Positions 15,988 through 53,128 of a stretch of 64,000 nucleotides of DNA are shown piece by piece (positions within the stretch are counted from its first letter, which is position 1; every line of letters begins with the position of its first letter). Both the position numbers and the translations under genes were made by a program. The stretch lies in the NCBI GenBank assembly GCA_947571135.1, contig CANOWY010000005.1:479-64478 (forward strand). The letters run 5' to 3'. Under the pieces are notes generated by a model. It searched no databases. It was not told the DNA's origin and saw nothing but the letters and a program-made list of their open reading frames with translations. The DNA comes from an uncultured Mycoplasmatota bacterium. GTDB lineage: Bacteria; Bacillota_I; Bacilli_A; RF39; UBA660.

Positions 15988-16049
15988 AATTTTCCTCCTT
16001 GTTATTTAATATGGCTATTATTTATGATAAAATACAAGTAGGTGAAAAT

Positions 16050-35389: not shown

Positions 35390-37699
35390 ATGTTAGAATT
35401 AAAAGAGATTAAAAAAAGTTATACAACAGGTGATTTTACGCAGCAAGCATTGAAAGGCGTAAATCTAAAGTTTCGTAAAAATGAGTTTGTTGCGATTTTA
35501 GGCCCAAGTGGTAGTGGAAAAACGACTCTTTTAAATATTGTAGGTGGTTTGGATCGTTATGATTCTGGAGATTTAATTATTAATGCTCATTCTACAAAAA
35601 AGTTTAAGGATCAAACTTGGGACGCTTATCGAAATAATTGTATTGGTTTTATTTTTCAAAGTTATAATTTAATTCCTCATATTAGTATTTTAGCCAATGT
35701 GGAAATGGGAATGACTTTGAGTGGCATTTCTAAAAAGAAAAGACATAATAAAGCAAAAAAAGTATTAGAACGTGTTGGACTTAAAGAGCATATTCATAAA
35801 AAGCCAAATCAATTATCTGGGGGGCAAATGCAGCGTGTTGCTATTGCAAGAGCACTTGCAAATGATCCTGATATTATTTTGGCAGATGAACCTACTGGCG
35901 CTCTCGATACTAAAACTAGTGTTCAAATTATGGAACTCATTAAAGAGATTGCTAAAGATAAATTAGTGATTATGGTTACACATAATCCAGATCTTGCCAA
36001 AAGTTATGCTAATCGTGTAATTGAAATGCGTGATGGAGAAGTTTTAAATGATTCTAATCCGATAAAAGAAAAAGAACGTGACGATAAGGAATATAAAATT
36101 AAACGTACTTCTATGAAATTTTTATCAGCATTAAATTTGAGTTTAAATAATATCAAAACAAAAAAAGGGCGTACTATTTTAACTGCATTTGCATCTAGTA
36201 TTGGAATTATTGGTATTGCTTCTATTTTAAGTTTATCTAATGGTTTTGATCGCCAAATTGATATTTTTGAGAGAAATACACTTTCTTCTATGCCTATTAT
36301 TATAAGTAGTCAAGCCATGAATTTAGATGAAGAAACTATGAATGATATGCAAAATTCTGTGAAAACGACAGATGAAGATTATCCAAGCGTTGATTATGTG
36401 ATTCCAGATAAAACTATGGAAGAGACGTTTACTCATAAAAATAATATTACAAAAGAGTATGTGGAATATATTGAAGCATCAGATTCTAATATCGTGAGTG
36501 GGATTTCTTATAATCGTTACATAGGGCTTAATTTGATTAATAAGATTGATGGAAAAGTAAAAATGCTTTCTATTGGAAACAATATGGGTAGTGTGCCAAA
36601 AAGTTTGAATACGGATAGAGAAAGTGTAATTGCTGAAAAATACGATATATTAGCAGGGAAAGAAGCAACTGAAAAAGAAGAACTTGTTTTAATTGTGGAT
36701 AGTAAGAACCATGTGACAGAAGATATTCTAGAGGCATTAGGACTTGATAAAACAAAAGAAAATATAAGTTTTGAAGATATTTTAAATAGTGAAATAAAAT
36801 TAGTCTTAAACGACAACTACTATGTAAAGGTTGGAGATTACTTTACGATAAATTCTGATTTAGACAAACTCTATACAGATAAAGATACAATGACTTTAAA
36901 GGTAGTGGGAATCGTACGTTTAAAAGATGATTTTCCAAGTTATGTACAATCTTCTGCTTTGACTTATACAGAGAAACTAATTGATTATATTATATCTGTA
37001 AATAAAGAGTCGAAAATTGTCAAGGCACAATCAAATGCTAAGTATAATGTGTTAACGGGAGAAACATTTGATTTAGCAACAGAAGAAGGGCAAGAATTAA
37101 AAACAAAGACACTTGCGTATTTAGGAGATGAAGCAGTTCCCTTTATGATTCAAGTGTATCCAAGAGATTTTAATGCGAAAGAAGATTTGCTTGCTTATTT
37201 AGATAAATATAATGAAGGAAAGTCAGTAGAAGAACAAGTTGTTTATACAGACCAAGCCGAAATTATTTCTTCTTTGTCTGGAAGTATTATGGATGCCATT
37301 ACAATAGTTTTAATTGCTTTTAGTGCCATTAGTTTAATTGTTTCTTCTATTATGATTGGAATTATTATGTATATTTCTGTTTTAGAAAGAACAAAAGAAA
37401 TTGGTATCTTAAGGAGTTTAGGGGCTCGTAAAAAGGATATTTCTCGTGTATTTAATGCAGAGACCTTTATTATTGGTATGTCTAGTGGTATTTTAGGAAT
37501 TGTGATTACGAGACTCTTGTTAATTCCTGCCAACCAAGTTCTATATAACTTAACAGATTTAAAAAATGTAGCGGTTTTAAATCCGGTGCATGCAATTATA
37601 TTAATTATGGTTAGTTTAGTTTTAACTTTAATTGGAGGAGCGTTGCCTGCTAAAATAGCAAGTAAGAAAGACCCAGTTATTGCGCTTAGAACAGAATAG
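35390..37699 (+). CDS. ABC transporter, fused ATP-binding and FtsX-type permease (MacB-like)
   Basis: Walker [10 protein letters not shown], signature [15 protein letters not shown], Walker [12 protein letters not shown]; C-terminal FtsX TM bundle; extended -10 TGTGTATAAT upstream. Confidence 0.9.
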
Positions 37700-37923: not shown

Positions 37924-38256
37924 GTGATGTTTATAAATACTCAATTTAAAAAGGGTGTTTTGGAACTACTCGTGCTTTTAATTGTTGAAAAGAAGGATAA
38001 ATATGGTTATGAACTTGTTGAAGAAGTAAGTAAAATTGTAGATGTAAACGAAGGCACTATCTATCCGATTTTAAAACGATTAACGAATGAAGGTTATTTT
38101 GAAACGTATTTGGAAGAATCGAAGGAAGGACCTATACGAAAATACTATCATATAACAGCACTTGGGAAGAAACGCTCGAAAGAACAAAAGAAAGAATGGA
38201 ATAATTTTGCAAGTAGTGTAAATGATTTTATTAAAGGGAGTGAGAAAAATGAGTAA
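37924..38256 (+). CDS. PadR-family transcriptional regulator
   Basis: [12 protein letters not shown]...EGTIYPILKRLTNEGY PadR signature. Confidence 0.8.
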   Translation: MMFINTQFKKGVLELLVLLIVEKKDKYGYELVEEVSKIVDVNEGTIYPILKRLTNEGYFETYLEESKEGPIRKYYHITALGKKRSKEQKKEWNNFASSVNDFIKGSEKNE

Positions 38257-39751
38257 AGAAAAGTTTTTGGAGAGTTTGCGTAAGAAATTATCTATTTTAG
38301 AAGAAAGTGAAATAGAAGATATTTTAAGTGAATATGAAGGTTACATTGAAGAAAAAATTAAAAAAGGCTCTAGTGAAGAAGAGGCCGTAAAATCTATGGG
38401 AAATATTGATGAGTTAGCAAGAGACTTATTGAGTGCTTATAAAATTAAAAATCCTAATGGAAAAGAGCATGATGGAATTAGTAGTTTAGTAGATAGTTTT
38501 ATAAATATATTTGATAGAATTATTTCTGTGTTTGCACATAAAAGTTTTAATGAAATTGTCAAATTTGTTATAGAATTGATTTTTATCTTTTTAATTATTG
38601 CAGTATGTAAAATTCCTTTTGAAATTATTGGAAGTATGGGAAGAGGCATTTTTTCTTCTTTTGGGAATACTAGTTTTCATATATTGTTTGGTGTGTGGAA
38701 TTTTATTTTGGAATGTGCTTATTTAATCTTTGCTATTCTGTTGTTTATTAAAATTTTTGAAAGCCGTTATTTGAATGGAGAATACGAGAGTATATTTACA
38801 TCTGAAGAAAAGGAAGATTCTAAGAAGGAAAATAAAGAAGAAAGTAAACAGGTGAATAAAGAAGAAAAAAAAGGTAAAGAAAAAATTGTTTATAAAGAAA
38901 AGAGAGAACGTCAAAATTGGGGGATTATTGATGCCTTAACAAAAGTCTGCATTTGGTTTATGAAATTTATTTTGTTATTTTTCTTATTTGGTATTGCTTG
39001 TTTTGTTATTGGTATGGCTATGACACTTGGAATTGCTGCTTATTTCTTTATTAAAGGAGTGTTCTATTTTGGAATTTATCTTATTTTAATTGCTTTATTT
39101 GTTATTGGGATTATTGCTTTTATTTTCTTATTTAACTTTATTTTTGATCATAAAAATAAGGTAGGAATTTTACTCATTGTCTCTTTAGTCAGTTTTGTGT
39201 TGTTGGGAATCGGTACAGGAATTTGTGCTTTGGAATTTGCGAGTACTACAATTGTTTACAATGAAAATAGTGATAAAAATGCAACGGCTTCTTATACCTA
39301 TGAAATGCAAGATAATTTGGTTCTTGAATGGAATTTAGAAAGAGATGAAATACAAATTGATGATACTTTAGGAAATAAGATTTATTTTGAATACAAATAC
39401 AATGATTCTTATTATCAAATAGAGGCCAATAAAAATATAAATCATCGTCATGGTTATGAAGTGCTATATTATTGGTATTATGTAAAAAGATTTACCTATA
39501 AAAAGGATTATTTTGAAAAGTTTTTACAAGATTTGAGAGATAAAACCATCTATGTTAATGGAGATAATGTTGGGATTGTTTTACATATGAGTAAAAAAAC
39601 GTATGATAAATTATTAGAGAATAAAAAGAAGTATGATAATTATGTCGAATTTAAAAATATGGATTTAGAGGATGTATGTGAAGAATTACATGATAAAGGG
39701 TATGCATTACCCAACTACTGTACAGAACTAGATGACTATCAAAGAATGTAA
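38249..39751 (+). CDS. PadR-associated DUF1700 (HAAS) membrane sensor protein with large C-terminal extracytoplasmic domain
   Basis: N-terminal [38 protein letters not shown]1700 pattern, polytopic middle; overlaps padR by 8 nt. Confidence 0.65.
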
Positions 39752-39822: not shown

Positions 39823-40755
39823 ATGAATGAAGAAAAAATTAGTATGATAGAACGATATGGGGAGAATTTTACTAAAAAAGAATTTATTACGGATCCCGCG
39901 ATAGCAAGAGAGGATGAGATAAAGCAATGTATGCTTATATTACTTACTCCTGAAAAAAGTGCTCTTTTAGTAGGAAAACCTGGTATAGGTAAAACGGCGA
40001 TTGTTGAGGGAATTGCTTATCGTATTCAAAAGGGTTTGGTTCCAGATGTCTTAAAGGATTGGGAACTAATTAAAATTAATATTACCTCTTTACTTGGTTC
40101 TAGTATTAGTGAAGGACAAGTAGAGAATAGAATTGATTTACTAGTAAAAGAGTTAGAAACTCGTGATAAGACAATTTTGTTTATTGATGAAACACATGTT
40201 TTGGTAAATAAAAATACAGCCCAGAATGGTGGAATTGACTTTGCTAATATGTTGAAATCTGGACTTGATCGTGGTGCTATTAAAATGGTAGGGGCAACAA
40301 CTACAGAAGAATATGAACAATATATTTTACGTGATAGGGCTTTCTTACGTCGTTTCCAAAAGGTAGATGTAATGGAAAGTGATCAGCCAACTACTGTCAA
40401 AATTTTAATGGGAACTTATCCAAAACTAGAGAAAAAAATTGGCGTGAAACTAAATTATACCGATTTCATTAAAGAAAAGATTATGGCTTTTATTGTAGAG
40501 ATGACTGATGAATATAAACGTGTATATGAAGTAGCAGCAAGGTATCCCGATATTTGTTTAACAATATTACAAAACGCATTCAGTTATGCACTTTTTGATA
40601 ATGAAAGTGAAGTAAAAATAAAGCACGTGTATAAAGCAGTTTGTAATGCTAGAAATATATATGAAGATGCAAAAGTGAAAGAAATTGCTAGATTTAAGGA
40701 AGTATTTGCAGATTTAATACGGGAAGAAAACGTAGATTTAGAGGATACAGATTAG
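39823..40755 (+). CDS. Stand-alone Clp/Hsp100 D1-like AAA+ ATPase domain protein
   Basis: Walker [21 protein letters not shown], Walker B ILFIDETH, sensor [27 protein letters not shown] identical in layout to ClpA/B D1; no N-domain or D2; upstream hairpin terminator 39763-39795 overlaps the longer ORF so ATG 39823 chosen. Confidence 0.65.
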
Positions 40756-40764
40756 GAGGTATTT

Positions 40765-41085
40765 ATGAAGGTTATAACCGTTTGTGGGAGTTTAAGATTT
40801 CAAAGGGAAATGGAAGAAATTGCACTTAAATTAGAACTTGAAGGAAATTGTGTTTTATTACCTATATTTCCTATTAATGGAGATAAAGATAATTATACAG
40901 AAGAAGAAATGAACATACTTGGTAAAATGCATTATGAAAGGATTAAAATTTCGGATGCAATTCTAGTTGTCAATGTAGATAACTATATAGGAAGTAGTAC
41001 AAAAAGTGAAATTGAATATGCTAAAAGTTTAAATAAAGAAATTATGTATTATATGGATTTTTCAAATAATACTAATGATAAGTAA
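40765..41085 (+). CDS. DNPH1/Rcl-like nucleoside 2-deoxyribosyltransferase-family protein
   Basis: N-terminal VITVCGSLRF (cf. YFCGSIRGG) and C-terminal ILVVNVDNYIGSSTKSEIEYAKSLNKEI (D..GT.FE.G.A..GKP pattern); strong RBS AGGAGG. Confidence 0.55.
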   Translation: MKVITVCGSLRFQREMEEIALKLELEGNCVLLPIFPINGDKDNYTEEEMNILGKMHYERIKISDAILVVNVDNYIGSSTKSEIEYAKSLNKEIMYYMDFSNNTNDK

Positions 41086-41499
41086 ATGGGTACAAGTATG
41101 AAAAAAGTAGTAATTGCTGGGAGTGCTAAACTTCAAAAAGAAGTGAATAAATGGATAGACTTTTTTGAAAGTAAGAACTATGAAGTATTAGATTATCCAA
41201 AAACGATTGAAGTTTCAAGATTTATGGAATTATACCCAAATGTACATACTGAATTTTTAGAAAACATCACCAAAACAGATATGTTATTTATAATGAATGA
41301 AGATAAGAATGGAAAACTAGGATATATTGGATATGAGGCATATGCAGAATTGCTTTTTGGACTATCTCAAAAATTGGTTTATAAAAAAGATATTGAACTA
41401 GTAATTTTAAAAATGCCAAGTACTGATGTAGGATGTTATGAAGAACTAGATTTATGGTTAAAACTTGGATGGATAAAATTATATGAGGAGGAAACCTAG
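41086..41499 (+). CDS. Second NDT/DNPH1-like small protein (divergent)
   Basis: VVIAGSAKLQ N-terminus and LFIMNEDKNGKLGYIGYEAYAELLFG; starts at nt after upstream stop. Confidence 0.4.
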   Translation: MGTSMKKVVIAGSAKLQKEVNKWIDFFESKNYEVLDYPKTIEVSRFMELYPNVHTEFLENITKTDMLFIMNEDKNGKLGYIGYEAYAELLFGLSQKLVYKKDIELVILKMPSTDVGCYEELDLWLKLGWIKLYEEET

Positions 41500-42059
41500 T
41501 GAATTTAAGAGAACAAATAGTAAATTATGTACCTTTTGATGAAGAGGAAGTAAAAATCAAAGAGTATTTATTAAAATGGATTGATAGATTTGATGATGTT
41601 TTGACTCGAGAAAATGAATTTGGACATTTTGCTTCTTCTGCTTTTGTAGTAAATAAAGATAGAACTAAAATGCTTGTTGTATATCATAATATTTATGACG
41701 CTTGGATTTTTCCGGGTGGCCACGCAGATGGTGAAGAAAATCTTTTATCGGTTGCAGTTCGCGAAGTAGAAGAAGAAACTGGTCAAAAAACCAAAGTTTT
41801 AGACGATTCTATTTTTGCCATTTCTGCTTCTCCAATTGTTGGGCATGTGAAAAGAGGAAAGTATATACCAGCCCATACGCATTTAGATGTTGTATATTTG
41901 TTAGAGGCTGATGATGAAATGCCTTTAGTTTATAGAGAAGATGAAAGTAAAGGCGTAAAGTGGATTACTTTTGAAGAAGCAATAGGAAATGATATTGTGT
42001 ACTTTATAAGACCTGTTCATAAAAGGTTGATAAAAAAAATTGGGTATGATAATAAATAA
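41499..42059 (+). CDS. Nudix hydrolase
   Basis: Nudix box GGHADGEENLLSVAVREVEEETGQ; GTG start with strong RBS GAGGAGG. Confidence 0.8.
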   Translation: MNLREQIVNYVPFDEEEVKIKEYLLKWIDRFDDVLTRENEFGHFASSAFVVNKDRTKMLVVYHNIYDAWIFPGGHADGEENLLSVAVREVEEETGQKTKVLDDSIFAISASPIVGHVKRGKYIPAHTHLDVVYLLEADDEMPLVYREDESKGVKWITFEEAIGNDIVYFIRPVHKRLIKKIGYDNK

Positions 42060-42165: not shown

Positions 42166-43248
42166 ATGGAAAGAAAAATTAGAGTAGCCCAAATTGGGTG
42201 TGGTAAGATGTCTAAGTACACAATGCGTTATGCAATTGAGAAAGGAGCAGAAGTCGTTCTTGCCTTTGATGTTTCTAAAGAAGTAATTGGCAGTGATATT
42301 GGTTCTATTATGGAAACTACAAATCGAAATATTAAAGTCGAAGACATTGCTACTTTAGAAGAACGTTTAATGGAAGTAAAACCTGATATTGCAATTGTTA
42401 CGACTATGAGTTTATTAAATGATTTAGGAGATGTTTTGCGTATTGTTGCAAAGTGTCATGTAAATGCTATTACAACTTGTGAAGAAGCATTTTTTGCAAG
42501 TAATTCTAATCCTACTTTATTTAAAGAATTAGATAGTTTAGCAAAAGCAGGAGGAATTACGATTACAGGTTGTGGTTATCAAGATATTTTTTGGGGCAGT
42601 TTAATTAGCAACTTAGCCTCTTCTACTCATAGAATCATAAAAATAAAAGGAAGTAGTTCTTATAATGTAGAGGATTATGGAATCGCTCTTGCTCGTGCGC
42701 ATGGTGCAGGTCTTAATCTAGAAGAGTTTAATCGTGATGTTTCTAGCGCAGATAATATAAGTGAAGCAGAAAGACAAAAGTTAATAGAAACGCGTGAGTT
42801 TGCTCCAAGTTATATGTGGAATGTAGCAGGTTGGCTAATTGATAAGTTAGGGCTTCATTTAACTTCGATAAGTCAAAAATGTGTACCACAAACAAACGAT
42901 GAAGATATTGAATCAAGTACTCTTGATATGACTATTAAGGCAGGAGATGCAACAGGAATGAGTGCTGTTGTTACCGCAACAACAAAAGAAGGAATTACGA
43001 TAGAAGCAGAATGCATTGGTAAGGTTTACAATAGTGAAGAGTTTGATGTCAATGCTTGGACGATTGAGGGAGAACCAAATACAACGATGATTATAAATAA
43101 GCCTTGTACTGTAGAACTTACTTGTGCAGATATTGTAAATCGTATTCCCGATGTAATCAATTCTCGTAGTGGCTTTGTTTCAACAAGTGAAATGCCTGAG
43201 TTACAATATCGCGTTAAACCATTAAACGAGTATATAGAAAAAGAATAG
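42166..43248 (+). CDS. NAD(P)-binding oxidoreductase, DapB-N/2,4-diaminopentanoate dehydrogenase-like
   Basis: Rossmann IRVAQIGCGKMSKYTMRY N-terminus. Confidence 0.5.
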   Translation: MERKIRVAQIGCGKMSKYTMRYAIEKGAEVVLAFDVSKEVIGSDIGSIMETTNRNIKVEDIATLEERLMEVKPDIAIVTTMSLLNDLGDVLRIVAKCHVNAITTCEEAFFASNSNPTLFKELDSLAKAGGITITGCGYQDIFWGSLISNLASSTHRIIKIKGSSSYNVEDYGIALARAHGAGLNLEEFNRDVSSADNISEAERQKLIETREFAPSYMWNVAGWLIDKLGLHLTSISQKCVPQTNDEDIESSTLDMTIKAGDATGMSAVVTATTKEGITIEAECIGKVYNSEEFDVNAWTIEGEPNTTMIINKPCTVELTCADIVNRIPDVINSRSGFVSTSEMPELQYRVKPLNEYIEKE

Positions 43249-43266
43249 CGTTGGCTTGCTATTCTT

Positions 43267-43521
43267 TTATCTTTTGTTAATAACGGCTCTAAAAACGAGT
43301 GTCGCTAAGAAAGCGGCGATTAGAATGCCAAATATTAAAATGATATCGTCACTTAGGAATCTATTTAAAAAAGTATGTGTATCCGAAAATAAATTACCAA
43401 AAAAAGTGGTTACATCTTCTATAAAATTCATTAGTTGTCTTGCAAAAGTCATGATAATATCCAGGGTTATCATTATATCACTCCTAGAATACATTATAAT
43501 ATAGACTTGCAATTTAAGCAA
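43267..43521 (-). CDS. Small C-terminally membrane-anchored protein (hypothetical)
   Basis: 84 aa with C-terminal TM IILIFGILIAAFLATLVF; mutually exclusive with antisense ORF 43256..43504. Confidence 0.3.
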   Translation of the reverse strand: MLKLQVYIIMYSRSDIMITLDIIMTFARQLMNFIEDVTTFFGNLFSDTHTFLNRFLSDDIILIFGILIAAFLATLVFRAVINKR

Positions 43522-43547: not shown

Positions 43548-43624
43548 GGCGGAATTGGTGAAGTGGTTAACACGCCGGATTGTGGCTCCGGTATGCATGG
43601 GTTCGATCCCCATATTTCGCCCCA
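43548..43624 (+). tRNA. tRNA-His (GTG) with G-1 and encoded CCA
   Basis: Extra 5' G pairing with discriminator C, anticodon loop TTGTGGC, T-arm ATGGGTTCGATCCCCAT. Confidence 0.85.
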
Positions 43625-43723
43625 TATTGAATTTTACGCACACCTTTGTGCGAGAGATTAGTAAAAGTTCGTAATACTTGATATTATGGACTTTTTTCTT
43701 TGCAAAGGTGGTGAGTATATATA

Positions 43724-44023
43724 ATGAATGTGTCCATAGAAATTTTAGAATTTCCTTTGTGTATAAAAAATAAGATATTAAGAATTAAAAATATTACCAA
43801 ACTAAATATAGAATATGTTGCAGGAAAGAATATCGTCTTTAATAACTCTAATTTAGGATTAAATGAACCACATAAGATTATCATTAGTAATAATACCCAA
43901 GGTATAGTTCTACTTTGTTATTATAATGATTCAAATCTATATAATGAAGATTTATCAGATACTATTACAATAACTGAACTAACTAAAATTATAAATACAT
44001 TGTTAGAAGAAATATCAAATTAA
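43724..44023 (+). CDS. Hypothetical protein
   Basis: 99-aa ORF only. Confidence 0.25.
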   Translation: MNVSIEILEFPLCIKNKILRIKNITKLNIEYVAGKNIVFNNSNLGLNEPHKIIISNNTQGIVLLCYYNDSNLYNEDLSDTITITELTKIINTLLEEISN

Positions 44024-44053
44024 TGGTATAATTGTCATAAGGAGTGATTATTT

Positions 44054-44398
44054 ATGAGAAATCATGATATGAGATTAAATGAAGAACCTTTTGATATGAT
44101 TGCAAATGATATTAAAGATATTGAATATAGGTTAAATGATGAAAAGCGTAAACAAATACAAATTGGGGATACAATTACTTTTTATAAGCGACCATTAGAG
44201 AAAGAGATAATCAAAGTATTAGTAACTGATTTAAAATATTATAAAACTTTATTGGAAATGTATTCTGCTACTTTTGAAAAAGATTTTAAAGATAGATATG
44301 ATAGTCCACAAGCTGTTGTAGATGATACACCATACTATACAAATGAAGAAGTAGAAAAATATGGATGTGTAGCAATCTACTTTAAAAAAATTAGATAA
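44054..44398 (+). CDS. ASCH/PUA-like domain protein
   Basis: EPFDMIANDIKDIEYRLNDEKRKQIQIGDTITF pattern. Confidence 0.45.
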   Translation: MRNHDMRLNEEPFDMIANDIKDIEYRLNDEKRKQIQIGDTITFYKRPLEKEIIKVLVTDLKYYKTLLEMYSATFEKDFKDRYDSPQAVVDDTPYYTNEEVEKYGCVAIYFKKIR

Positions 44399-44545
44399 TA
44401 GTGCTGTTTTTAAACTATTAAACAAAAAAATTAAAATTTGTTTTTTTCCTTTATTCATAAGGGGTAAATAGTTATTTTTAGATATAATTTTCAAATTGTG
44501 TGTGCGATTAAGATAGAAGTGTGACAAAGGAGAAAAAATCGCACA

Positions 44546-45585
44546 GTGTAGGTTTGTCAAACCCAACCAACAAAATTTTTGGAAAGGATTGATAAACTGT
44601 GAGTAAATCAAAAATTACTCAGCAAATGAGATACCGAGAGTCTCTCATTAAATACGCCGATCAACATGGCGTATCAAAAGCGTCTCGTGTTTATAACACA
44701 AATAGACAATATATCTATCGTTGGAAGAATCGATACGATGGTAATATTCGTTCTCTGGAAAATAAGAGTAAAAGACCGAAAAGTCATCCGAATCAACATA
44801 CCCAAGATGAGATAAAACTCATCAAAGATATGTTTAAGAAAAATAAGGATACAGGTTTAGTTGTTCTTTGGGTGAAATTAAAACAAAAAGGATATACAAG
44901 AAGTTGTTCTTCTCTGTATCATCAATTAAAAAAACTAGAACTTAAATTTAATACCCCAAAGAAAAAGAAGAAACGAAAGTCTAAACCTTATGTACAGATG
45001 ACTTTTCCTGGAGAACGAATACAGATAGATGTGAAAACCGTTCCTACAAGATGTATAGTAGGTCAGTTCAAATTGTACCAATATACAGCAATCGACGAAT
45101 TCAGTCGGGTTCGTTATCTAAAAATTTATGGAGAAAAATCTACTTATACTTCTTACAAATTCTTGCAAGAAGTCATAAAAAGATTTCCTTTTAAAATTTA
45201 TACGATAAGAACAGATAATGGTCCTGAATTCACCAAAAGATTGCTAAGTAAAGATCCAAATGATAAGACAATATTTGAACATGGCCTAGAAAAAGCAGGT
45301 ATCCATCATGACATCATTAAACCTTACACCCCTAAACACAATGGTAAGGTAGAACGAAGTCATAGAAAGGATAATGAACGTTTTTATTTGTCTCATCGCT
45401 TTTATTCCTTAGAAGATGCCAATAAACAGTTGCAAGTTTATTTAAATCAATATAATAATTTTCCCATGCAACCTTTAAATTGGAAATCTCCTAAGGAATG
45501 GCTTCGTGATTATTTTAATAACTTAAAATAATCTTATCGTTGGTTTGTCGTTACCTTTGTAACTTTTGTTTGACAAACCTACATT
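44546..45585 (+). mobile_element. IS481-like insertion sequence with perfect 16-bp terminal inverted repeats TGTAGGTTTGTCAAAC
   Basis: IRL 44546-44561, IRR 45570-45585 (exact reverse complement); single DDE transposase inside. Confidence 0.75.
44599..45531 (+). CDS. DDE transposase (rve integrase-core, IS481-like)
   Basis: N-terminal HTH, TDNGPEF and PYTPKHNGKVERSHR motifs. Confidence 0.85.
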   Translation: MSKSKITQQMRYRESLIKYADQHGVSKASRVYNTNRQYIYRWKNRYDGNIRSLENKSKRPKSHPNQHTQDEIKLIKDMFKKNKDTGLVVLWVKLKQKGYTRSCSSLYHQLKKLELKFNTPKKKKKRKSKPYVQMTFPGERIQIDVKTVPTRCIVGQFKLYQYTAIDEFSRVRYLKIYGEKSTYTSYKFLQEVIKRFPFKIYTIRTDNGPEFTKRLLSKDPNDKTIFEHGLEKAGIHHDIIKPYTPKHNGKVERSHRKDNERFYLSHRFYSLEDANKQLQVYLNQYNNFPMQPLNWKSPKEWLRDYFNNLK

Positions 45586-45743
45586 TTTAGATATAATTTT
45601 CAAATTGTGTCCGTTGCATGTCCTAAAAAAATGTGGTATTATGGTAATATACGAAAATTCTAGATAATCGTATATTTGAATTATTTTGAAGTTCTTAACA
45701 CAAGGGAAATTCTTCCTTGTTTTTTTGTCGTTAAAAATTATAG

Positions 45744-47495
<1,752 letters not shown>

Positions 47496-47530
47496 ATATA
47501 GTATAATTATATTAGATGTAAAACTGATAA

Positions 47531-48094
47531 ATGAAAGGAGAATTTATGGATAATAATTTAAATTTTGAACAAATAGAAGAAAATAAAGATTTAATTGCTG
47601 AAATTACTTATAATTGTATAAAAAGCGTATTTTCTAAAGAAGATCAAAAGAATATTTTAGTCGCTGAAATAGATCCAAAATATATGGATGGTATTAAATT
47701 ATGTGAGCATTACAATATTGATACAAAAACCGGTGCTAATTGTTTAGTGTGTGAATGCAAGAGAGGAGAAAATAAAAGTTATGTCGCCCTTCTTGTACCA
47801 ACTGGATATAAGTATAATATGTCATCTACAGTTAGAAAATATACAAATTCACGAATGGTATCAGTCGCTCCATTAGAATATGTTTTAGAAAAAACTAAAA
47901 TGGAATATGGTAGTATAAATCCTATTGGATTACCTCAAGAATGGAAGATTTTTATTGATCCTAAGGTAATGGAAGTAGATAGAATTATTTGTGGAAGTGG
48001 ATTACAAAAGTCAAAAATTTCATTGCCAAGTAAATATTTATTAAAGTTAAATAATGTAGAAATTTTAGAAAATTTAGCAAAGGAGGTAGATTAA
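47531..48094 (+). CDS. YbaK/ProX-like aminoacyl-tRNA deacylase domain protein
   Basis: GSINPIGLP and overall YbaK-like pattern. Confidence 0.55.
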   Translation: MKGEFMDNNLNFEQIEENKDLIAEITYNCIKSVFSKEDQKNILVAEIDPKYMDGIKLCEHYNIDTKTGANCLVCECKRGENKSYVALLVPTGYKYNMSSTVRKYTNSRMVSVAPLEYVLEKTKMEYGSINPIGLPQEWKIFIDPKVMEVDRIICGSGLQKSKISLPSKYLLKLNNVEILENLAKEVD

Positions 48095-49467
48095 TGAAAA
48101 ACACTTTAGAATATTTTGAAGAAATTATGAAGATTCCAAGAGAATCTGGAAAAGAAGATAAAATAGCTGCTTATTTAGTCAATTACGCCAAAGAAAATAA
48201 TATTGAATATAGTTTGGGAAAGTATAATACAGTGTTTCTAAAGAAGAATAATAATTCTGATAAAACAATTATTTTACAAGCACATTCAGATATGGTTTGT
48301 GTGTCAACAGATGATTATGATTTTGATAACAAAGGAGTACCTTTTTATATTGAAGATGATTATTATAAATCAAAGAATACTTCGCTAGGAGCAGATGATG
48401 GGATTGGAATTGCAATTATTCTTGCAGTTCTACAAGAAAATGAAAATATGCCAAATATTGAAGTAATGATCACTACACAAGAAGAAACAACTATGCTAGG
48501 TGCTAGTAACTTTGATTATTCTTTATTAACTGGTAAAACTTTAATTAGTTTGGATGGTATAAAAGAAGCAGATATTGAGTCTTCAAGTGCAGGTATGTGC
48601 TCTATGACATTAAATAAAAAAATAAATTATGAAACTGAAAATTGTAATGTTTATAAACTATCAATAAGTGGTTTAAAGGGTGGACATTCTGGAGATGATA
48701 TTGATAAAAATAGATGTAATGCAATAAAGTTGGCTATAAAATTATTAAATGAATTAGATTATAAAGAAATAGCGGATATTCAATTTGGTAAACGTGATAA
48801 TGTAATACCAAGTGAAGGTTATGTTATATTTACTTCTAATGAAAATATAGAATTATTACAGAAAAAACTAGATGACATTGAATTAGATTTAAGTGAAGAA
48901 GATTCTAATATAATATTAAATTTAGAAAAAAGTGAATCAACAAAATTTATCAAAGAAAGTAAAGATATAATTCAGTTTGTATCTAAAATAAAAGATGGTT
49001 TATTAGAAACTTATCAAGATGACAATTTCCCTTTATTATCAGCAAATATTGGTAAAATATCTATTTTAAATGATATTCTAGAAATAAAATATAGTATTAG
49101 AAGTTCTGATTTATCAAAAGAGGAAATGTTACTAAATGAAGTAAAATTACTTGCTAATCAATATGCATTTGAGATGATTATTGATGCAAAAAAACCATTT
49201 TTTCCATTTAAAGAAAATTCAATGATAAGAAAAATTTTAGCTGATAATTATAAAAAATTGTATGGAAAAGAAACGATTGTTAAAAAAGTTCATGCTTGTA
49301 TGGAGGGTGGAATTTTATCAAATAATATTGCTGATTTAGATATATGTACAATTGCTCCTTCTATAGATAATTGTCATTCAATCAATGAGCGTGTAAGTAT
49401 ATCTTCTACCAAAAGAGTATACGATTGGTTAAAAGAAACCTTAATTGAATATAATAAAATCAAATAG
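48094..49467 (+). CDS. pepD: M20-family Xaa-His dipeptidase (PepD-like)
   Basis: HSDMV and GADDGIGIA metal-binding motifs, TQEETTMLGA. Confidence 0.75.
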   Translation: MKNTLEYFEEIMKIPRESGKEDKIAAYLVNYAKENNIEYSLGKYNTVFLKKNNNSDKTIILQAHSDMVCVSTDDYDFDNKGVPFYIEDDYYKSKNTSLGADDGIGIAIILAVLQENENMPNIEVMITTQEETTMLGASNFDYSLLTGKTLISLDGIKEADIESSSAGMCSMTLNKKINYETENCNVYKLSISGLKGGHSGDDIDKNRCNAIKLAIKLLNELDYKEIADIQFGKRDNVIPSEGYVIFTSNENIELLQKKLDDIELDLSEEDSNIILNLEKSESTKFIKESKDIIQFVSKIKDGLLETYQDDNFPLLSANIGKISILNDILEIKYSIRSSDLSKEEMLLNEVKLLANQYAFEMIIDAKKPFFPFKENSMIRKILADNYKKLYGKETIVKKVHACMEGGILSNNIADLDICTIAPSIDNCHSINERVSISSTKRVYDWLKETLIEYNKIK

Positions 49468-49856
49468 TTAAAAAATTTAAATATCATAATAATTTGAGCG
49501 AGAAATCGCTCTTTTTTGTTGTCTAAATTTAGAAAGGAGATGAGTTTTATTAATTATTTCTTTGAAATAGTCGTGCCACAATTATTAGAGTATTTTAAAC
49601 AAAATGCAAAGGATGTTCCTTATTCTTTGCTATTTGAAGTATTAATTAATAATAAGAACTATGAAAAAGAAGTAAAAGAAATGATTGAAAAATCTAATGA
49701 AATTAGTAAAAAATATGAAGAAAAAAAGTAAACTGTCGGAGACTATATTAGTAGGTCTTAGGGATATTCCCTAACAAGTAGATGGGTGTGTATACACCAT
49801 GCTTGATATATTGAATTTTTATATTACGTTACCCGTTCCCTACTTTTTGAAAGGAG

Positions 49857-50411
49857 ATGTATATGAATCAAGAATGGATAGATAGAAAAGATGTTCAAAA
49901 GATGTTTTCATTAACAACAAAACAATTTGGAAGAGTTATGAGAAATATAAAACGAAGACACGAACATGATTATCATTTATGGATAAGAAGAGATAAATAT
50001 AAGAAAACACAAATGTATATAAGTAAAGAATGTGTTGATTGGTTAAAAGAAGTTTATTTTAACAAAGAAGACCATTACTTAACTTCTGAAATAAGATTTT
50101 ATAAAAAGAAGATTTTTTATTTAGAAAATGAATTAGGAATAGATCATAAAAGAAAAAAATATCAATCTTTTTCATTAAGATTTTTGCCTTACTTGTTTGG
50201 TAAAAGTATAAGTGCTATTCATGTAGCACTTCATAGGATGAAAAAAGTATTTCCCTATCCTATAACTTTTGAAGATGATGGCGTTATATGTGTAAAGGAA
50301 GAAGGAGTTAGATGGTTGTATGAAAATTATTTTAAGAGAGATTATTTAAAAGAATTAGAAGAATATAAATGGGAATTAGAAATTAGAAAAAATATAATAG
50401 TTAGAAATTAG
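49857..50411 (+). CDS. Hypothetical protein with internal duplication
   Basis: Repeated ISKECVDWLKEVYFNKEDHY / VKEEGVRWLYENYFKRDY modules. Confidence 0.4.
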   Translation: MYMNQEWIDRKDVQKMFSLTTKQFGRVMRNIKRRHEHDYHLWIRRDKYKKTQMYISKECVDWLKEVYFNKEDHYLTSEIRFYKKKIFYLENELGIDHKRKKYQSFSLRFLPYLFGKSISAIHVALHRMKKVFPYPITFEDDGVICVKEEGVRWLYENYFKRDYLKELEEYKWELEIRKNIIVRN

Positions 50412-50477
50412 TAAAATTTTTAATAACTACTTTGATAAATAATCTTTTTGCAGTATAATATTCTTAGGAGGTAAGCT

Positions 50478-50672
50478 ATGGAAATGAAAGAAATAATAAC
50501 ATTTATCTGTACTATATTATCTGCTTTATTTGCGGGAGCGAGTTTTACTTTTTATAAAAAAAATTTAAAGATAAGTGGAGATTATAAAGAAACAAAAAAT
50601 AAATATAAGAATATAAATCAACAATCTGGTAAAGATGGAAAAAATATTATTGGGGATAATAACAAATTTTAG
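50478..50672 (+). CDS. Small single-TM protein
   Basis: N-terminal TM ITFICTILSALFAGASFTFY; RBS AGGAGG. Confidence 0.4.
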   Translation: MEMKEIITFICTILSALFAGASFTFYKKNLKISGDYKETKNKYKNINQQSGKDGKNIIGDNNKF

Positions 50673-50683
50673 GGGGAATTGTA

Positions 50684-51208
50684 GTGGGAGATGCAGTAAA
50701 ACAAATAACTGGTGATGGTGGAATAAATATTGATGGAAATAATAATACTCTTAATTTATATAAGCAACCTATAAAATATGATTTATTATCTAAACTATGT
50801 AAAGATTTAATAGATAGTGATTTAAACTTCAATGAAGATATGAATATAAATGAGTTACCAGTAGAATTGCTAGAAAAAATAGAATATAACCATTTAACTG
50901 CTCATAAAGAATTATATGAGGAATTTGGAATGTATTTTTTAGATATAGATGGAGTAGTAAAAAAATCTTTGGGTGATAATTCTATAAAATTAGTTCGAAT
51001 TATTAAAACTTTATATCTTGAAATTTTGGCTAATGACCCTAATCAAACTGCGGATCAAATATTGTTTAATATTGAAAATAAATTAATGAATTATACAAGT
51101 TTAATTGATTCAACAGAATATTTAAATGAAGATGTTAGATATTCTATAAGTCAAATTGTATTGTATGTTTTTGAAAAATGTCAGATTCTAAAAAAACCAA
51201 AAAAATAA
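50684..51208 (+). CDS. Hypothetical protein (candidate effector/partner of downstream ABC ATPase)
   Basis: GTG start with RBS GGGGGAA. Confidence 0.35.
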   Translation: MGDAVKQITGDGGINIDGNNNTLNLYKQPIKYDLLSKLCKDLIDSDLNFNEDMNINELPVELLEKIEYNHLTAHKELYEEFGMYFLDIDGVVKKSLGDNSIKLVRIIKTLYLEILANDPNQTADQILFNIENKLMNYTSLIDSTEYLNEDVRYSISQIVLYVFEKCQILKKPKK

Positions 51209-51224
51209 AAAGAAAGGTGGAAGT

Positions 51225-51452
51225 GTGATGCAACTAATTAATAAGAATATTAGTCCAGATAAGACAATATATTATATATCAGTTATTATATATAAAGAAT
51301 TAAAGGAAGCCACCTACTCTGTAAAAAAATTATATGAAAATTTGGAAGAAAAAAGCGAAGATATTGATTACAGCAGTTATCTGTATGCTTTAAACTTTTT
51401 ATATTTAATAGAAAAAATTACTTTAGACAAGGATGTGATTAAATTATGTTAA
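51225..51452 (+). CDS. Small helical protein (candidate middle component)
   Basis: RBS AAAGGTGG; 7-nt overlap with downstream ATPase. Confidence 0.4.
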   Translation: MMQLINKNISPDKTIYYISVIIYKELKEATYSVKKLYENLEEKSEDIDYSSYLYALNFLYLIEKITLDKDVIKLC

Positions 51453-53128
51453 TTGAAAGATTAGTTATTAAGGAATCATTTCCAAGTGAAAGTATAATAC
51501 GTGATATAAAATTTAATTTGGATGGTTTAAATTTAATTGTAGATGAAGGAAATAGAAAAAGAGGAAATGGAGTTGGCAAAACAACTTTTTTAAGACTAAT
51601 AGATATTGCCTTTGGCGCTAAAGATCGTAAAGCATTATATGTTGATCCAGAAACATCTTCCATAAATGAGAAGTTAAAAAATTATATTGAAACATCTAAG
51701 GTATTCATAGAGTTATCAATAATTAATCAATCGACAAATATAAAAACATTGTTGATGGTAGAATTATTTCCAAGCGGAATTAGAAAAATTAATAATGAGA
51801 AATATAATTATAATGAATACAAAGAAAAATTAAATGAAATTGTTTTTGGAAATGCAGATAAGGTTCCAACCTTTCGTAATCTCATTGGTAAATTTATCAG
51901 AGTAAATATGAATGGCGATAATAATAGTTTCTTATATTTTAATAGCGATCATTGCTCAAATGCAGAATATCAAAATATCTATAACTATCTTTTTAAATTT
52001 AAAAATTCAGAGATTGAAAACATTATTTTATCTTTGAGAGAAAAAATTTCTGATTTAGAAAAACAATATAAAATGGTAAAAACAAGTTTAAAATATGATA
52101 GTATAGGTCAAATTGATGCAAAAATAAACATTATTGAAACTAAAGTGAAGGAATTAGAAAATAAACAAAAAACGTATATTGATGAGAAAATTGTTTTAGA
52201 TGAAAAAAAGATAATGGAGAATAGAAAAGAATATTCCTTATTAAATCGTGAATGTGAAAAATTATTATTTGATATTAAAATATTAGAAGATAATATAAAA
52301 AAAGAATCATCTACTCGACAAAATATTGATGAAAAAGCTTTAAAGAATTTCTATGATGATGTTCAATTAAATATTTCTGCTTTAAGCAAAACATTTGCAG
52401 AATTAGTTGCTTTTAATAATCAATTGAACCAAAATCAGATAGATACTTATAATAAAATGCTAAAGGCTAAAAAACAAAAGTTAGATGAAATTAATATAAA
52501 AAAAGACAGATTTTATAATGATAACAAAGGTTATATGTTTTTGGTTGAAAATGGTAGTTTAGAGGAATATCTTAATTTACAAGAAAATTTAAGCAATTAT
52601 CAAACCGGATTAGGTGAATGCTATAATGCTAGAGATATATATGATGATTATGATCGAAAAATTTCTAATGCTCAGATAGAACTAAATGAGCAAGTAGAAA
52701 AAAATAAAATTAATCAAGTTGATGAAAATTTAAATAAATTTAATACAATATTTACAAACTTTTCAAAGAAAACTGTAGATGCAGAATATTTCTTGTATTA
52801 TAATGAATCTGGATTTCCTTTATCAATTTCAAATGTAGATGGAAGCTTTAGTACAGGAACAAGAAAGACTGCTATTATAGCGTTTGATTTAGCGTATTTA
52901 AAATATTCAAGAGATTTAAAAATTAAGTGCCCTAAATTTGTTATTCATGATGTTTTAGAAAACATCCATCAAAATGATTTTTATCAAACTATTGATCTTA
53001 TTAAAAATCAAAAATTTCAATATATTGCTGCTATTTTAAAACAAAGTATTGATATGCACGATAATATCGATAAAGATAAAGATATTATTTTAACTCTTTC
53101 AGAAGATGAAAAACTTTTTCTAATTTAA
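51446..53128 (+). CDS. SMC/Rad50-like ABC ATPase with central coiled coil (DUF2326/Lamassu LmuB/ABC-3C-like)
   Basis: N-terminal Walker A GNGVGKTTFLRLIDIAFG, long coiled coil, C-terminal Walker B/D-loop AIIAFDLAYL and H-loop FVIHDVLENIH. Confidence 0.65.
   Translation: MLIERLVIKESFPSESIIRDIKFNLDGLNLIVDEGNRKRGNGVGKTTFLRLIDIAFGAKDRKALYVDPETSSINEKLKNYIETSKVFIELSIINQSTNIKTLLMVELFPSGIRKINNEKYNYNEYKEKLNEIVFGNADKVPTFRNLIGKFIRVNMNGDNNSFLYFNSDHCSNAEYQNIYNYLFKFKNSEIENIILSLREKISDLEKQYKMVKTSLKYDSIGQIDAKINIIETKVKELENKQKTYIDEKIVLDEKKIMENRKEYSLLNRECEKLLFDIKILEDNIKKESSTRQNIDEKALKNFYDDVQLNISALSKTFAELVAFNNQLNQNQIDTYNKMLKAKKQKLDEINIKKDRFYNDNKGYMFLVENGSLEEYLNLQENLSNYQTGLGECYNARDIYDDYDRKISNAQIELNEQVEKNKINQVDENLNKFNTIFTNFSKKTVDAEYFLYYNESGFPLSISNVDGSFSTGTRKTAIIAFDLAYLKYSRDLKIKCPKFVIHDVLENIHQNDFYQTIDLIKNQKFQYIAAILKQSIDMHDNIDKDKDIILTLSEDEKLFLI

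Follow-up and report, generated by a model that had tools for sequence, protein, structure and literature searches.

The window analysed here is a stretch of 64,000 nucleotides from an uncultured Mycoplasmatota bacterium. Between positions 39823 and 42059 it carries four open reading frames on the plus strand, encoding a AAA+ ATPase, two small proteins here called S106 and S137, and a Nudix hydrolase. The gaps between them measure 9, 0 and -1 nt, as an earlier sequence-only reading had given them, the 0-nt value hinging on the start codon chosen for S137. A PadR-HAAS gene pair precedes the four genes and an oxidoreductase gene follows them (Table 1).

Table 1. Genes and features of the locus, in positions of the window
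Feature	Position	Strand	Evidence or remark
PadR-family winged-helix regulator	37924..38256	+	PF03551 70.4 bits; backbone gene 1
HAAS-domain membrane protein, sensor partner of PadR	38222..39751	+	PF22564 HAAS 45.1 bits
ClpA/B D1-like stand-alone AAA+ ATPase, 310 aa	39823..40755	+	D1 alignment
S106, minimal NDT-superfamily protein, 106 aa	40765..41085	+	fold match
S137, NDT-fold protein, 137 aa (probably 133)	41086..41499	+	fold match
Nudix hydrolase, 186 aa, GTG start	41499..42059	+	PF00293 51.1 bits; PDB 3fcm 9e-51
DAP_DH_C / DapB-like oxidoreductase	42166..43248	+	last gene of conserved backbone
Terminator-like hairpin, 12-bp stem and T-run	43239..43268	+	consensus scan

Database homologues of high identity are numerous for S137 (405), S106 (1223) and the AAA+ protein (>7900), so that these are real genes and not chance reading frames. 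The ATG at 39823 agrees with the lengths of the AAA+ homologues (309-314 aa), an AGGAGG at 40754-40759 lies 5' of the S106 ATG, and a GAGGAGG at 41485-41491 lies 5' of the Nudix GTG, which shares 1 nt with the stop codon of S137. Most S137 homologues begin, with the motif MKK[IV]VIAGS, at what is here the fifth codon, and for this reason the ATG at 41098 appears the more likely start, giving a protein of 133 aa and a gap of 12 nt to S106. The PadR and HAAS genes overlap in the window, and the HAAS protein probably starts at ATG 38249, with 500 aa, the length called in loci L001-L007. In a consensus scan, the hairpin at the end of the oxidoreductase gene was the first terminator-like one 3' of the PadR promoter-like site; judged from these letters, the transcription unit likely ends there, and everything from the PadR promoter region to this hairpin, the four genes included, is probably co-transcribed. 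Promoter-like sites were no commoner in the same scan than shuffling of the sequence would give (25, with 33 expected), which argues neither for nor against internal promoters. Searches with Rfam, which covered the whole window at gathering thresholds, the region from 37.5 to 43.7 kb at permissive ones and 11 S106 loci whose upstream gaps are long, returned only tRNAs and no riboswitch hinting at a ligand.

The AAA+ protein matches residues 162-411 of ClpA at 5e-52, as well as the D1 domains of ClpB and ClpV, and was aligned on D1 of the ClpB, ClpC1 and ClpA structures; its likeness to the Clp/Hsp100 D1 ring (ClpA, ClpB, ClpC, ClpV) extends, at 1e-35 to 1e-41, over the full length of the D1 large domain. 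As expected of that group, 121 homologues show no variation in Walker A, Walker B, sensor 1 or the two arginine fingers. The 310 residues nevertheless hold a single AAA domain, which differs from Clp/Hsp100 proteins in having no N-domain, M-domain, D2 or D2-borne ClpP loop. The earlier description of a stand-alone ClpA/B D1-type module devoid of N-domain, D2 and ClpP loop is thus borne out by the matches and the single domain alike. A further difference concerns pore loop 1, where Ser96 aligns with the tyrosine of ClpB1 and where all 121 homologues have Ser, Thr or Asn; because this tyrosine is missing, the protein would act by ATP-dependent remodelling instead of threading. Finally, and again unlike in Clp/Hsp100, the gene always comes after a PadR-HAAS pair.

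This last point changes how the locus has to be divided. Wherever a locus with the AAA+ gene extends far enough upstream, PadR lies directly 5' of HAAS and AAA+ (one further locus, L022, ends inside HAAS). Relatives with a 79-80% identical AAA+ protein have the order PadR-HAAS-AAA-DAP_DH-like, with the oxidoreductase gene 13 nt behind the AAA+ gene and none of the three nucleotide genes; this backbone is uninterrupted in six loci. The AAA+ gene thus belongs with the PadR-HAAS pair, and the earlier notion of an operon lying merely downstream of that pair does not hold. The HAAS-PadR dyad has been described as an envelope-stress signalling pair and proposed as an alternative to two-component sensing of such stress (PMC11237479), and the arrangement given there, a standalone PadR winged-helix gene followed by an overlapping gene for a membrane protein whose N-terminal domain is HAAS, is also the one in the window. 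The passages of that paper on AAA+ proteins deal with PspF, Vps4-like and PspA-associated ATPases, and in 12 of 19 matching passages no D1-like AAA+ gene is tied to the dyad. PadR, HAAS, AAA+ and oxidoreductase genes together form a conserved backbone, probably an envelope- or membrane-stress-type regulon. The ectodomain of the HAAS sensor is hypervariable here.

Synteny was counted around the S106 gene, which served as anchor in 69 evaluable loci at species level. The AAA+ gene adjoins S106 upstream in eight of them, 2-17 nt apart, S137 adjoins it downstream in five, and only one, that of the window's own species, has the four genes side by side. Synteny in other genomes had been set beforehand as one point on which the four-gene operon should stand or fall, and essentially none of the four genes together was found beyond this species. 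S106 is the sole insert in the backbone in six other loci, and in one more (L079) the backbone contains S106 while an NDT-S137-Nudix cassette sits 5 kb away between serine recombinase genes, a position equally compatible with metabolism and with an accessory role, possibly one in conflict. The 2-17 nt spacing between AAA+ and S106 in eight species could reflect a functional link within that clade. Tight spacing in these compact genomes does not establish a functional system; small nucleotide-housekeeping genes enter unrelated operons.

As regards the two small proteins, both have a flavodoxin-like alpha/beta fold superposable on solved structures of nucleoside 2'-deoxyribosyltransferases (NDTs) and of DNPH1; NDT-family structures rank first, with the short type II NDTs 6evs and 7o62 as best matches. 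Sequence signals are fainter. S106 stays below the Pfam thresholds (PF05014, 16.0 bits against 28.8; DUF4406, 15.5 against 22), and among 30 relatives 25 match PF05014, at 4e-4 or weaker only, 12 match DUF4406 and five weakly match SLOG cluster 4. S137 has no Pfam match, no Pfam model exists for its family, and a single one of 48 relatives gives a match, at 3e-4. Neither small protein thus reaches the gathering threshold of PF05014, PF14359 or PF15891. Against PDB sequences, the S106 profile and the S137 profiles, including the divergent one built from 48 sequences, returned only noise (E > 0.1). Of the motifs by which both proteins had been assigned to the NDT/DNPH1 family, the N-terminal CGS(I/L)R type occurs in S106 as CGSLRF and is replaced in S137 by AGSAKL, and the literal D..G..E.G.A..GK pattern is found in neither. 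The NDT/DNPH1-like assignment therefore stands on the fold, its motifs being loose, and in the proposed Pfam check the Nudix protein passed its cutoff while the two small proteins did not. An EF-hand-like reading of the NEDKNG...GYIGYE loop of S137 was discarded, since loop position 6 is not Gly and the centrin matches (E ~0.3) are not significant.

A glutamate that opens the helix following strand 3, E82 in S106 and E88 in S137, is invariant, and the two align with each other and with the Glu found in the motif GRGTHIELG of a bona fide PF05014 protein, at the position of the catalytic residue; E88 and N71 of S137 are invariant in 48 S137 proteins, down to 28% identity with the window protein. 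An aspartate before strand 3 (D64 and D65), kept in at least 90% of members, aligns with the Asp of 'SD' in the PF05014 protein, with modest significance (E 0.007 and 8e-5). Known NDTs complete the triad with a tyrosine where strand 1 ends, which positions the Glu and excludes ribose. This residue is absent here: S106 has Thr5 at this place, according to the alignment and to placement by eye, and S137 has Val9, aligned with the PF05014 Tyr. Sugar specificity, and even activity, are for this reason uncertain in both proteins. To judge from the title of a work cited elsewhere (ref. 39 in PMC12884076), MilB carries Phe instead of this Tyr and takes ribonucleotides. Placement by eye also locates a Gly six residues before the Glu (G76 in S106, G82 in S137), compatible with a phosphate pocket, and a transferase-like invariant Asn ending strand 3 (N70 and N71). 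In N-glycosidases of the DNPH1 type, such a pocket has small uncharged residues where an Asp/Asn would otherwise bind the 5'-OH, and the water-excluding Pro is absent. An invariant Pro just after strand 2 (P33 and P38) may be, again by eye, the water-excluding Pro of transferases (PMC12884076), and from such residues transfer instead of hydrolysis appears possible. Both small families are best described as uncharacterised members of the known NDT superfamily.

The fourth gene encodes, as had been claimed, a canonical Nudix hydrolase, with 51.1 bits for PF00293 against a cutoff of 21.1 and a Nudix box that reads GHADGEENLLSVAVREVEEETGQ in the translation (consensus GX5EX7REUXEEXGU); its closest counterpart of solved structure, the uncharacterised structural-genomics entry 3fcm, aligns over ~180 residues at 9e-51 and shares the N-terminal helical extension as well as the box. 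The link between this enzyme and S137 recurs. A Nudix gene of the same type lies directly 3' of S137 in eight other loci, three of which repeat the 1-nt overlap. Single-polypeptide fusions of S137 and Nudix occur (P0264, P0267), S137 is fused to an HD domain in P0281 and in L144-L146, and the structural matches in BFVD include proteins of fusion-like length, one of 412 aa under the name Nudix hydrolase and one of 462 aa whose name refers to a dATP/dGTP diphosphohydrolase domain. On the other side, the gene directly 5' of S137 has the NDT fold in 13 of the 14 gut-clade loci with a readable upstream flank. It is S106 in the window and in seven other loci, and a PF05014-type NDT in five (against the cutoff of 28.8 bits, L108 scores 32.1 and L079 28.7, just under). 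Nudix and NDT neighbours are both missing from most environmental S137 loci (50-60% identity), which indicates that the coupling is restricted to a clade.

S106 is widespread. Its family forms over 1200 clusters at 90% identity, which bear only the name 'hypothetical protein' among the matches listed, and its phage relatives are distant (31-38% identity), one of them being annotated as a deoxyribosyltransferase. A raw listing of its neighbours elsewhere includes dUTPase, ITPase-like NTPase_I-T, UDG, ASCH, Q_salvage, NT5C-like, HAD and MazG genes, and MazG adjoins the S106-S137 pair itself in L011/L030. In a single metagenome-assembled genome (L056) S106 and S137 form one in-frame ORF, a fusion that could be an assembly error. 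The literature on DUF4406, on YtoQ and on NDTs with Nudix partners yielded nothing on either family.

These data bear directly on the proposal that the four genes constitute one system, in which the AAA+ protein would drive or regulate N-glycosidase-type and pyrophosphatase effectors as an anti-phage defence or an ATP-dependent sanitation machine. Same-strand spacing in the window and the 2-17 nt AAA-S106 gaps speak for it, and so do the occurrence of NDT-like and Nudix domains in defence, such as the NDT-like effector of retron Ec86 (PMC13276650), a Lamassu/ABC-3C-like pair in a variable island ~8 kb downstream, and the recombinase genes that flank the L079 cassette. Nevertheless, contiguity is limited to one species, the AAA+ gene keeps to PadR-HAAS and the oxidoreductase even where the nucleotide genes are missing, and most S106 and S137-Nudix loci are without an AAA+ gene, so that the coupling of an ATPase to the other enzymes is not supported. 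Matches in PADLOC were marginal, generic or absent (none for S137; ThsB at 1e-3, 16 bits, for S106; PDC-S07 at 1e-3 for Nudix; TRIP13 and IetA for the AAA+ protein), with no partner genes nearby, and on both grounds membership in retron, Thoeris or CBASS systems is out. No S137 relative was found in viral contigs or by tblastn in the phage collection. With S106 standing elsewhere among housekeeping nucleotide-cleaning genes, the defence reading receives no direct support, and a single four-gene system is the most improbable of the explanations considered here.

Two others concern the small proteins alone. They might be true nucleoside 2'-deoxyribosyltransferases that interconvert salvaged deoxynucleosides, next to an unrelated housekeeping Nudix gene. 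Lactobacilli possess a pair of NDT enzymes, one purine-specific and one general, which interconvert deoxynucleosides, and the adjacent paralogues S106 and S137 recall this pair; moreover, the top structural matches are short type II NDTs, the invariant Asn and Pro look transferase-like by eye in the light of PMC12884076, and a bona fide PF05014 protein can stand in for S106 upstream of S137. However, those NDTs, from Bacillus psychrosaccharolyticus (6evs) and Desulfotalea psychrophila (7o62), differ from S106 and S137 in that the latter fall below the PF05014 threshold and lack the Tyr enforcing 2'-deoxy specificity. The repeated coupling and fusion of S137 to Nudix and HD enzymes, which produce 5'-monophosphates, and MazG beside the S106-S137 pair point instead to 5'-phosphorylated substrates, which leaves action on free nucleosides plausible but unlikely. 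Much less probable still is a TIR-like or SLOG-like nature of S106 and perhaps of S137, as domains that process NAD+ or ADP-ribose or act in signalling, with the Nudix protein as an ADP-ribose or NADH pyrophosphatase. The ThsB match, the weak SLOG cluster 4 matches and a weak resemblance of the Nudix protein to the NadM-Nudix ADP-ribose pyrophosphatases of NCBIfam would suit such a role, yet NDT-family structures rank first for both proteins, sequence signals in the S106 family favour PF05014 and DUF4406, the conserved Glu aligns with the NDT nucleophile, and signalling partners such as Thoeris ThsA or a CD-NTase are missing from the neighbourhood.

The stretch is thus read, with moderate confidence, as a composite of three units with separate evolutionary histories and not as a new ATPase-driven system. 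The first would be the D1-like AAA+ gene of the PadR-HAAS-AAA-oxidoreductase backbone; the second S106, a widespread free-standing gene presumably inserted between the AAA+ and oxidoreductase genes; the third S137 and Nudix, which would form a translationally coupled two-enzyme cassette. Nucleotide sanitation or salvage by S137-Nudix belongs to the same reading, and the sanitation role suggested earlier is in this form the best supported one for the small proteins and the Nudix enzyme, the ATPase probably having no part in it. In the best reading, a cassette of pyrophosphatase and N-glycosidase (or transferase) has been put into an envelope-stress-type operon. In a first step, the Nudix enzyme would cut a derivative of a nucleoside di- or triphosphate, most likely non-canonical or modified, down to its 5'-monophosphate. 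Next, S137 would break the N-glycosidic bond, with Glu88 forming a covalent intermediate and Asp65 assisting, and either free the base and (deoxy)ribose 5-phosphate or move the phosphosugar onto another base, placing the compound beyond re-phosphorylation and incorporation. S106, with Glu82 as its catalytic residue, might perform the same chemistry on a different class of bases or form a heterodimer with S137. Of this picture the folds, the conserved Glu and Asp, the gene orders and the fusions are observed; the substrates, the choice between hydrolysis and transfer, and the heteromers are predicted.

Precedents exist for such a two-step logic. DNPH1/Rcl is a 2'-deoxynucleoside 5'-phosphate N-hydrolase and MilB/BlsM are N-glycosidases of CMP and hydroxymethyl-CMP, all from the hydrolase branch of the NDT superfamily. 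S106 and S137 share with them the Glu that opens the helix following strand 3, the Asp before strand 3 and the presumed action after an NTP pyrophosphatase, and the CGSLRF N-terminus of S106 presumably resembles that of DNPH1. They are, however, much smaller (about 100 and 133 aa), have Thr or Val instead of the triad Tyr (Phe in MilB), are without significant sequence match to any PDB entry and, in S137, contain a family-specific MNEDKNG...GYIG hairpin insert. Another parallel is found in Z-genome phages, where the gene of DmtZ, an NDT-family dAMP hydrolase/phosphodeoxyribosyl transferase, adjoins or fuses with that of the dNTP pyrophosphatase DutZ (PMC12884076). There as in S137-Nudix, both adjacent genes and fusions occur, and a pyrophosphatase yields a dNMP whose base an NDT-fold enzyme removes or exchanges, an activity that is predicted here. 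Differences are that the partner is Nudix (or HD, or MazG nearby) and not dUTPase-like, that S137-Nudix is cellular, in chromosomes of gut Bacilli and not in phage, that no PurZ/Z-base context is present, and that DmtZ retains the triad Tyr.

Two bolder possibilities deserve mention. An NDT-fold partner (S106 or PF05014-type), S137 and Nudix could make up a mobile, partner-swapping cassette whose heteromeric enzyme destroys or base-exchanges one non-canonical nucleotide, drawn from hypermodified phage DNA precursors or from modified nucleotides scavenged in the gut, and which would be an uncatalogued immunity or detoxification module; this we regard as quite unlikely. Independently, a D1-only, pore-loop-less AAA+ protein as dedicated output of the HAAS-PadR envelope sensor would be a second novelty. 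If the enzymology holds, S137-Nudix, together with S106, would represent in bacteria what the route from NTP pyrophosphatase to DNPH1 is in animals and DutZ-DmtZ in phages, its hosts being reduced-genome gut Bacilli that must live on scavenged nucleotides. The S137 and S106 families would thereby gain a function, and such short NDT-fold proteins might serve as biocatalysts for nucleoside and nucleotide analogues.

The four ORFs that fill 39823-42059 lie on the same strand of a window with about 29% G+C, and the spacings of 9, 0 and -1 nt first read from the sequence agree with their coordinates, the GTG start of the Nudix gene having one base in common with the TAG stop of S137 (the 137-aa protein). 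Shine-Dalgarno motifs precede S106, the 106-aa protein (AGGAGG), and the Nudix gene (GAGGAGG). In the family alignment the majority of S137 homologues begin at the fifth codon of the window protein, so that the true start is probably ATG 41098, which would set the gap between S106 and S137 at 12 nt, not 0. All four ORFs are real genes; database homologues number 405 for S137, 1223 for S106 and >7900 for the AAA+ protein, and most of these, among the matches listed, are 70-99% identical. A scan for promoters and terminators found a promoter-like site with 10/12 matches ahead of the PadR gene and the first terminator-like hairpin 3' of it at 43239-43268, and it is plausible that the whole block forms one transcript.

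Features of the window in and around the gene block
Feature	Position	Strand	Remark
ABC ATPase-FtsX permease	35390-37699		fused, 769 aa
PadR regulator	37924-38256	+	
HAAS membrane protein	38222-39751	+	
AAA+ protein	39823-40755	+	310 aa
Shine-Dalgarno	40754-40759		ahead of S106
S106	40765-41085	+	106 aa
S137	41086-41499	+	137 aa
Shine-Dalgarno	41485-41491		ahead of Nudix gene
Nudix hydrolase	41499-42059	+	GTG start
DAP_DH-like oxidoreductase	42166-43248	+	
Terminator-like hairpin	43239-43268		
tRNA gene	43549-43621		
Strain-variable island	43700-54300		lower G+C
99-aa ORF			in island
ASCH gene	44054-44398		in island
rve-type IS transposase	44599-45531		in island
Large serine recombinase	45759-47495		in island
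tRNA_edit protein, M20 peptidase			in island
174-aa protein	50684-51208		in island
560-aa protein	51446-53128		in island
Radical-SAM protein with HhH motif, then DUF4130 protein	54357-56313		just beyond island

The sequence-only reading had joined the AAA+ protein, the two proteins resembling nucleoside 2'-deoxyribosyltransferases (NDT) or DNPH1 and the Nudix hydrolase into a single nucleotide-sanitation or defence operon; its observations were largely correct, but their unification is not supported. With one genome per GTDB species and S106 as the anchor, 80 loci were obtained, 69 of which had enough flank on both sides to be evaluated. The AAA gene is directly upstream of S106 in eight of these 69 and S137 directly downstream in five, and all four genes are contiguous in just one, L019, a mouse-gut MAG of the window's own species ('uncultured Bacilli bacterium MGBC143693'), whose S106 is 100% identical and whose neighbouring proteins are 92-98% identical, except for the HAAS sensor (66%). 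How the block was assembled is shown by the variants of the locus. In L099-L104 the order is ABC/FtsX exporter, PadR, HAAS, AAA (79-80% identical) and DAP_DH-like oxidoreductase, with 13 nt between the last two and none of the S106, S137 or Nudix genes at the locus. In closer relatives (L020, L021, L022, L025, L051 and L063) this junction holds S106 alone, and in the window and L019 it holds S106, S137 and the Nudix gene. L079 carries S106 at the junction and, at a distance of 5 kb, a separate NDT-S137-Nudix cassette with a serine recombinase gene on either side.

In every AAA-bearing locus in which the flank is present, the AAA gene lies 3' of PadR-HAAS and 5' of the oxidoreductase, and it therefore belongs to that backbone. 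As the sequence had indicated, its product lacks an N-domain, a D2 module and a ClpP loop: the 310 residues contain a single AAA module, which matches ClpA (residues 162-411, 5e-52), ClpB and ClpV in their D1 regions, and the first ~210 residues align with D1 in the solved structures of ClpB, ClpC1 and ClpA. Across 121 homologues there is no variation in Walker A, Walker B (DE), sensor 1 or either of the arginine fingers. Unlike ClpA/B/C, which have a tyrosine in pore loop 1, the family has S, T or N at this position in the same 121 homologues (Ser96 in the window, aligned with the ClpB tyrosine), and because of this replacement the protein, by its motifs an active ATPase, probably does not pull substrates through its pore in the classical manner. 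PMC11237479 describes the HAAS-PadR dyad as an alternative to two-component systems for the signalling of envelope stress.

Within this backbone the AAA+ protein is strongly conserved (79-98% identity) compared with the oxidoreductase (62-92%) and the HAAS protein (37-66%). Relative to L019, the HAAS and transmembrane regions are ~68-92% identical in 40-residue blocks, the C-terminal, presumably extracytoplasmic domain (residues ~345-509) just ~33-53%, and the products of the flanking PadR and AAA genes 98%. Such local hypervariability of a sensor ectodomain suggests recombination or diversifying selection. The fused exporter directly upstream of PadR belongs to the same conserved neighbourhood, with a MarR gene ahead of it in L099-L104, and may be what the HAAS-PadR regulator controls.

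S106 and S137 belong to the NDT superfamily, in which they are divergent and uncharacterised. S106 has sub-threshold Pfam matches to PF05014 and DUF4406, which recur in 25/30 and 12/30 family members, respectively, and S137 has no match in Pfam, NCBIfam, PHROGs or PADLOC; its family, which has no Pfam model, is small, as 1.84 billion proteins yielded 180 representative clusters of it. When profiles were compared, the two families matched each other (E 2.6e-5) as well as a bona fide PF05014 protein, and in comparisons of structure models MilB, Rcl/DNPH1 and YtoQ come close behind the best matches, with TIR domains slightly lower. The NDT/DNPH1 assignment made from the sequence is thus upheld for the fold, but the literal sequence patterns then quoted are present only loosely. 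In profile alignments the catalytic glutamate corresponds to the invariant E82 of S106 and E88 of S137, and the triad aspartate to D64 and D65, respectively. In place of the triad tyrosine S137 has Val9, by the alignment with the PF05014 protein, and S106 has Thr5, a position assigned by eye in the alignment of its family. Both proteins have the fold, the Glu and the Asp of the superfamily, and neither has the Tyr or reaches a Pfam threshold. With this tyrosine lost, the sugar may be ribose or deoxyribose; MilB, with Phe at that position, accepts ribonucleotides, according to the title of a reference within PMC12884076. Each protein also has a proline behind strand 2 and an Asn behind strand 3 that do not vary in its family; both were placed by eye and could be transferase-like features, so that S106 and S137 may be hydrolases or transferases.

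Elsewhere S106 keeps varied company. The protein is 60-75% identical across MAGs labelled Bacilli, Clostridia, Lachnospiraceae, Oscillospiraceae, Erysipelotrichales, Tissierella and Neglectibacter, and no single neighbour family is common to more than ~12 of the 80 loci. Directly upstream are found a dUTPase (L057, L059) or NTPase_I-T (L054, L060, and nearby in L045 and L070), and other neighbours comprise UDG-superfamily genes (L062, L064, L083, L094), ASCH (L064, L075, L094), a queuosine-salvage protein (L049, L075, L082, L085), MazG (L011/L030, L032) and recurring NT5C-like and HAD phosphatases; L011 also has MutY, exonuclease III, CYTH and NT5C near S106. Counted from cluster membership, one or more such nucleotide-cleaning genes occur within 2.5 kb in ~24 of the 80 loci, a share judged to exceed by far an assumed chance rate of a few percent.

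The genuine linkage in the block is that of S137 to the Nudix gene and to a second NDT-fold gene. The Nudix hydrolase proved to be canonical, as first read (51 bits, above threshold, with a canonical Nudix box), its nearest solved relative being 3fcm (9e-51), an entry without assigned function. The same Nudix type lies directly 3' of S137 in L019, L031, L052, L056, L106, L108, L111 and L125, all loci anchored on S137 or S106, and the 1-nt overlap is kept in L106, L108 and L111; in L128 and L132 a different Nudix is found just upstream. P0264 and P0267 are single-chain S137-Nudix fusions, and the Nudix part of P0267 is of the window's type, N-terminal extension included; in P0292 the Nudix box is degenerate, and P0281 and L144-L146 are S137-HD fusions. 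Viral NDTs make up most of the structural matches of S137 in BFVD. Two of the matches bear the names of a Nudix hydrolase (412 aa) and of a dATP/dGTP diphosphohydrolase domain (462 aa), and they are long enough to suggest that an NDT-like fold is fused to such enzymes. Among the 14 gut-clade S137 loci with a readable upstream flank, the gene directly 5' is NDT-fold in 13: S106 in the window, L019, L030, L031, L032, L052, L056 and L106, and a PF05014-type NDT in L107, L108, L110, L111 and L079 (32.1 bits in L108, above the cutoff of 28.8, and 28.7 in L079, just short of it). In a single MAG, L056, the frame of S106 runs on into S137 without an intervening stop codon, giving one 252-aa ORF (3044-3802) that may be a true fusion or may result from misassembly. 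The metagenome contigs L106 and L107 have flanking gene families in common, between which lie S106-S137-Nudix-ACT in the former and NDT(PF05014)-S137-PNPOx-like in the latter, and partners have therefore been swapped around a constant S137 at one chromosomal site. Most of the more distant S137 genes, which are environmental (50-60% identity), have no such partners.

In L079 (12458-17634) the cassette comprises the PF05014-type NDT (15327-15716), S137 (15727-16128) and a Nudix that is shortened at its N-terminus (16210-16695). One of the flanking recombinase genes is nearly identical to that of the window, and the cassette can therefore sit on or beside a mobile element. In the window, the recombinase belongs to the island that follows the tRNA gene, where G+C falls to 22-25% from about 47 kb. 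Strain L001 lacks the island and has in its place a 211-aa gene and a second Nudix, and it conserves the radical-SAM and DUF4130 genes beyond. The 174-aa island protein matches ABC-three-component CTD10 at 26.7 bits (cutoff 28.1), and its 560-aa neighbour matches the Lamassu LmuB model from end to end (PADLOC 1e-7); the two are probably a defence pair of Lamassu/ABC-3C-like type.

Two NDT-fold proteins with conserved Glu and Asp accompany a canonical Nudix; S137 is translationally coupled and fused with Nudix and HD enzymes, and S106 has a house-cleaning neighbourhood. In the mechanism we propose, the substrate of the Nudix hydrolase would be a derivative, probably non-canonical, of a nucleoside di- or triphosphate, and its product the 5'-monophosphate, whose N-glycosidic bond S137 would cut through a Glu88-sugar intermediate, yielding the base and (deoxy)ribose-5-phosphate or, alternatively, transferring the phosphosugar. 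S106 might carry out like chemistry on another base class or form a heteromer with S137. The same logic is known for DNPH1, which acts after NTP pyrophosphatases, and for the phage pair DutZ-DmtZ, likewise adjacent or fused (PMC12884076). A role purely in salvage by nucleoside transfer would agree with the best structural matches, but seems unlikely, as it leaves the fusions to monophosphate-producing enzymes unexplained. Far less credible is a four-gene ATPase-coupled system or a defence function, which the synteny data contradict and to which PADLOC and viral searches give no support; what keeps a conflict-related reading alive, at low probability, is the position of the L079 cassette between recombinase genes and the Lamassu/ABC-3C-like pair in the variable island ~8 kb downstream. 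A nucleotide sanitation or salvage cassette is the plausible reading that remains. Its design would be an already known one, in which an NTP pyrophosphatase is paired with an N-glycosidase or transferase of the NDT fold. A separate matter is the AAA+ protein that is attached to a HAAS-PadR dyad and consists of D1 alone, with no tyrosine in the pore loop.
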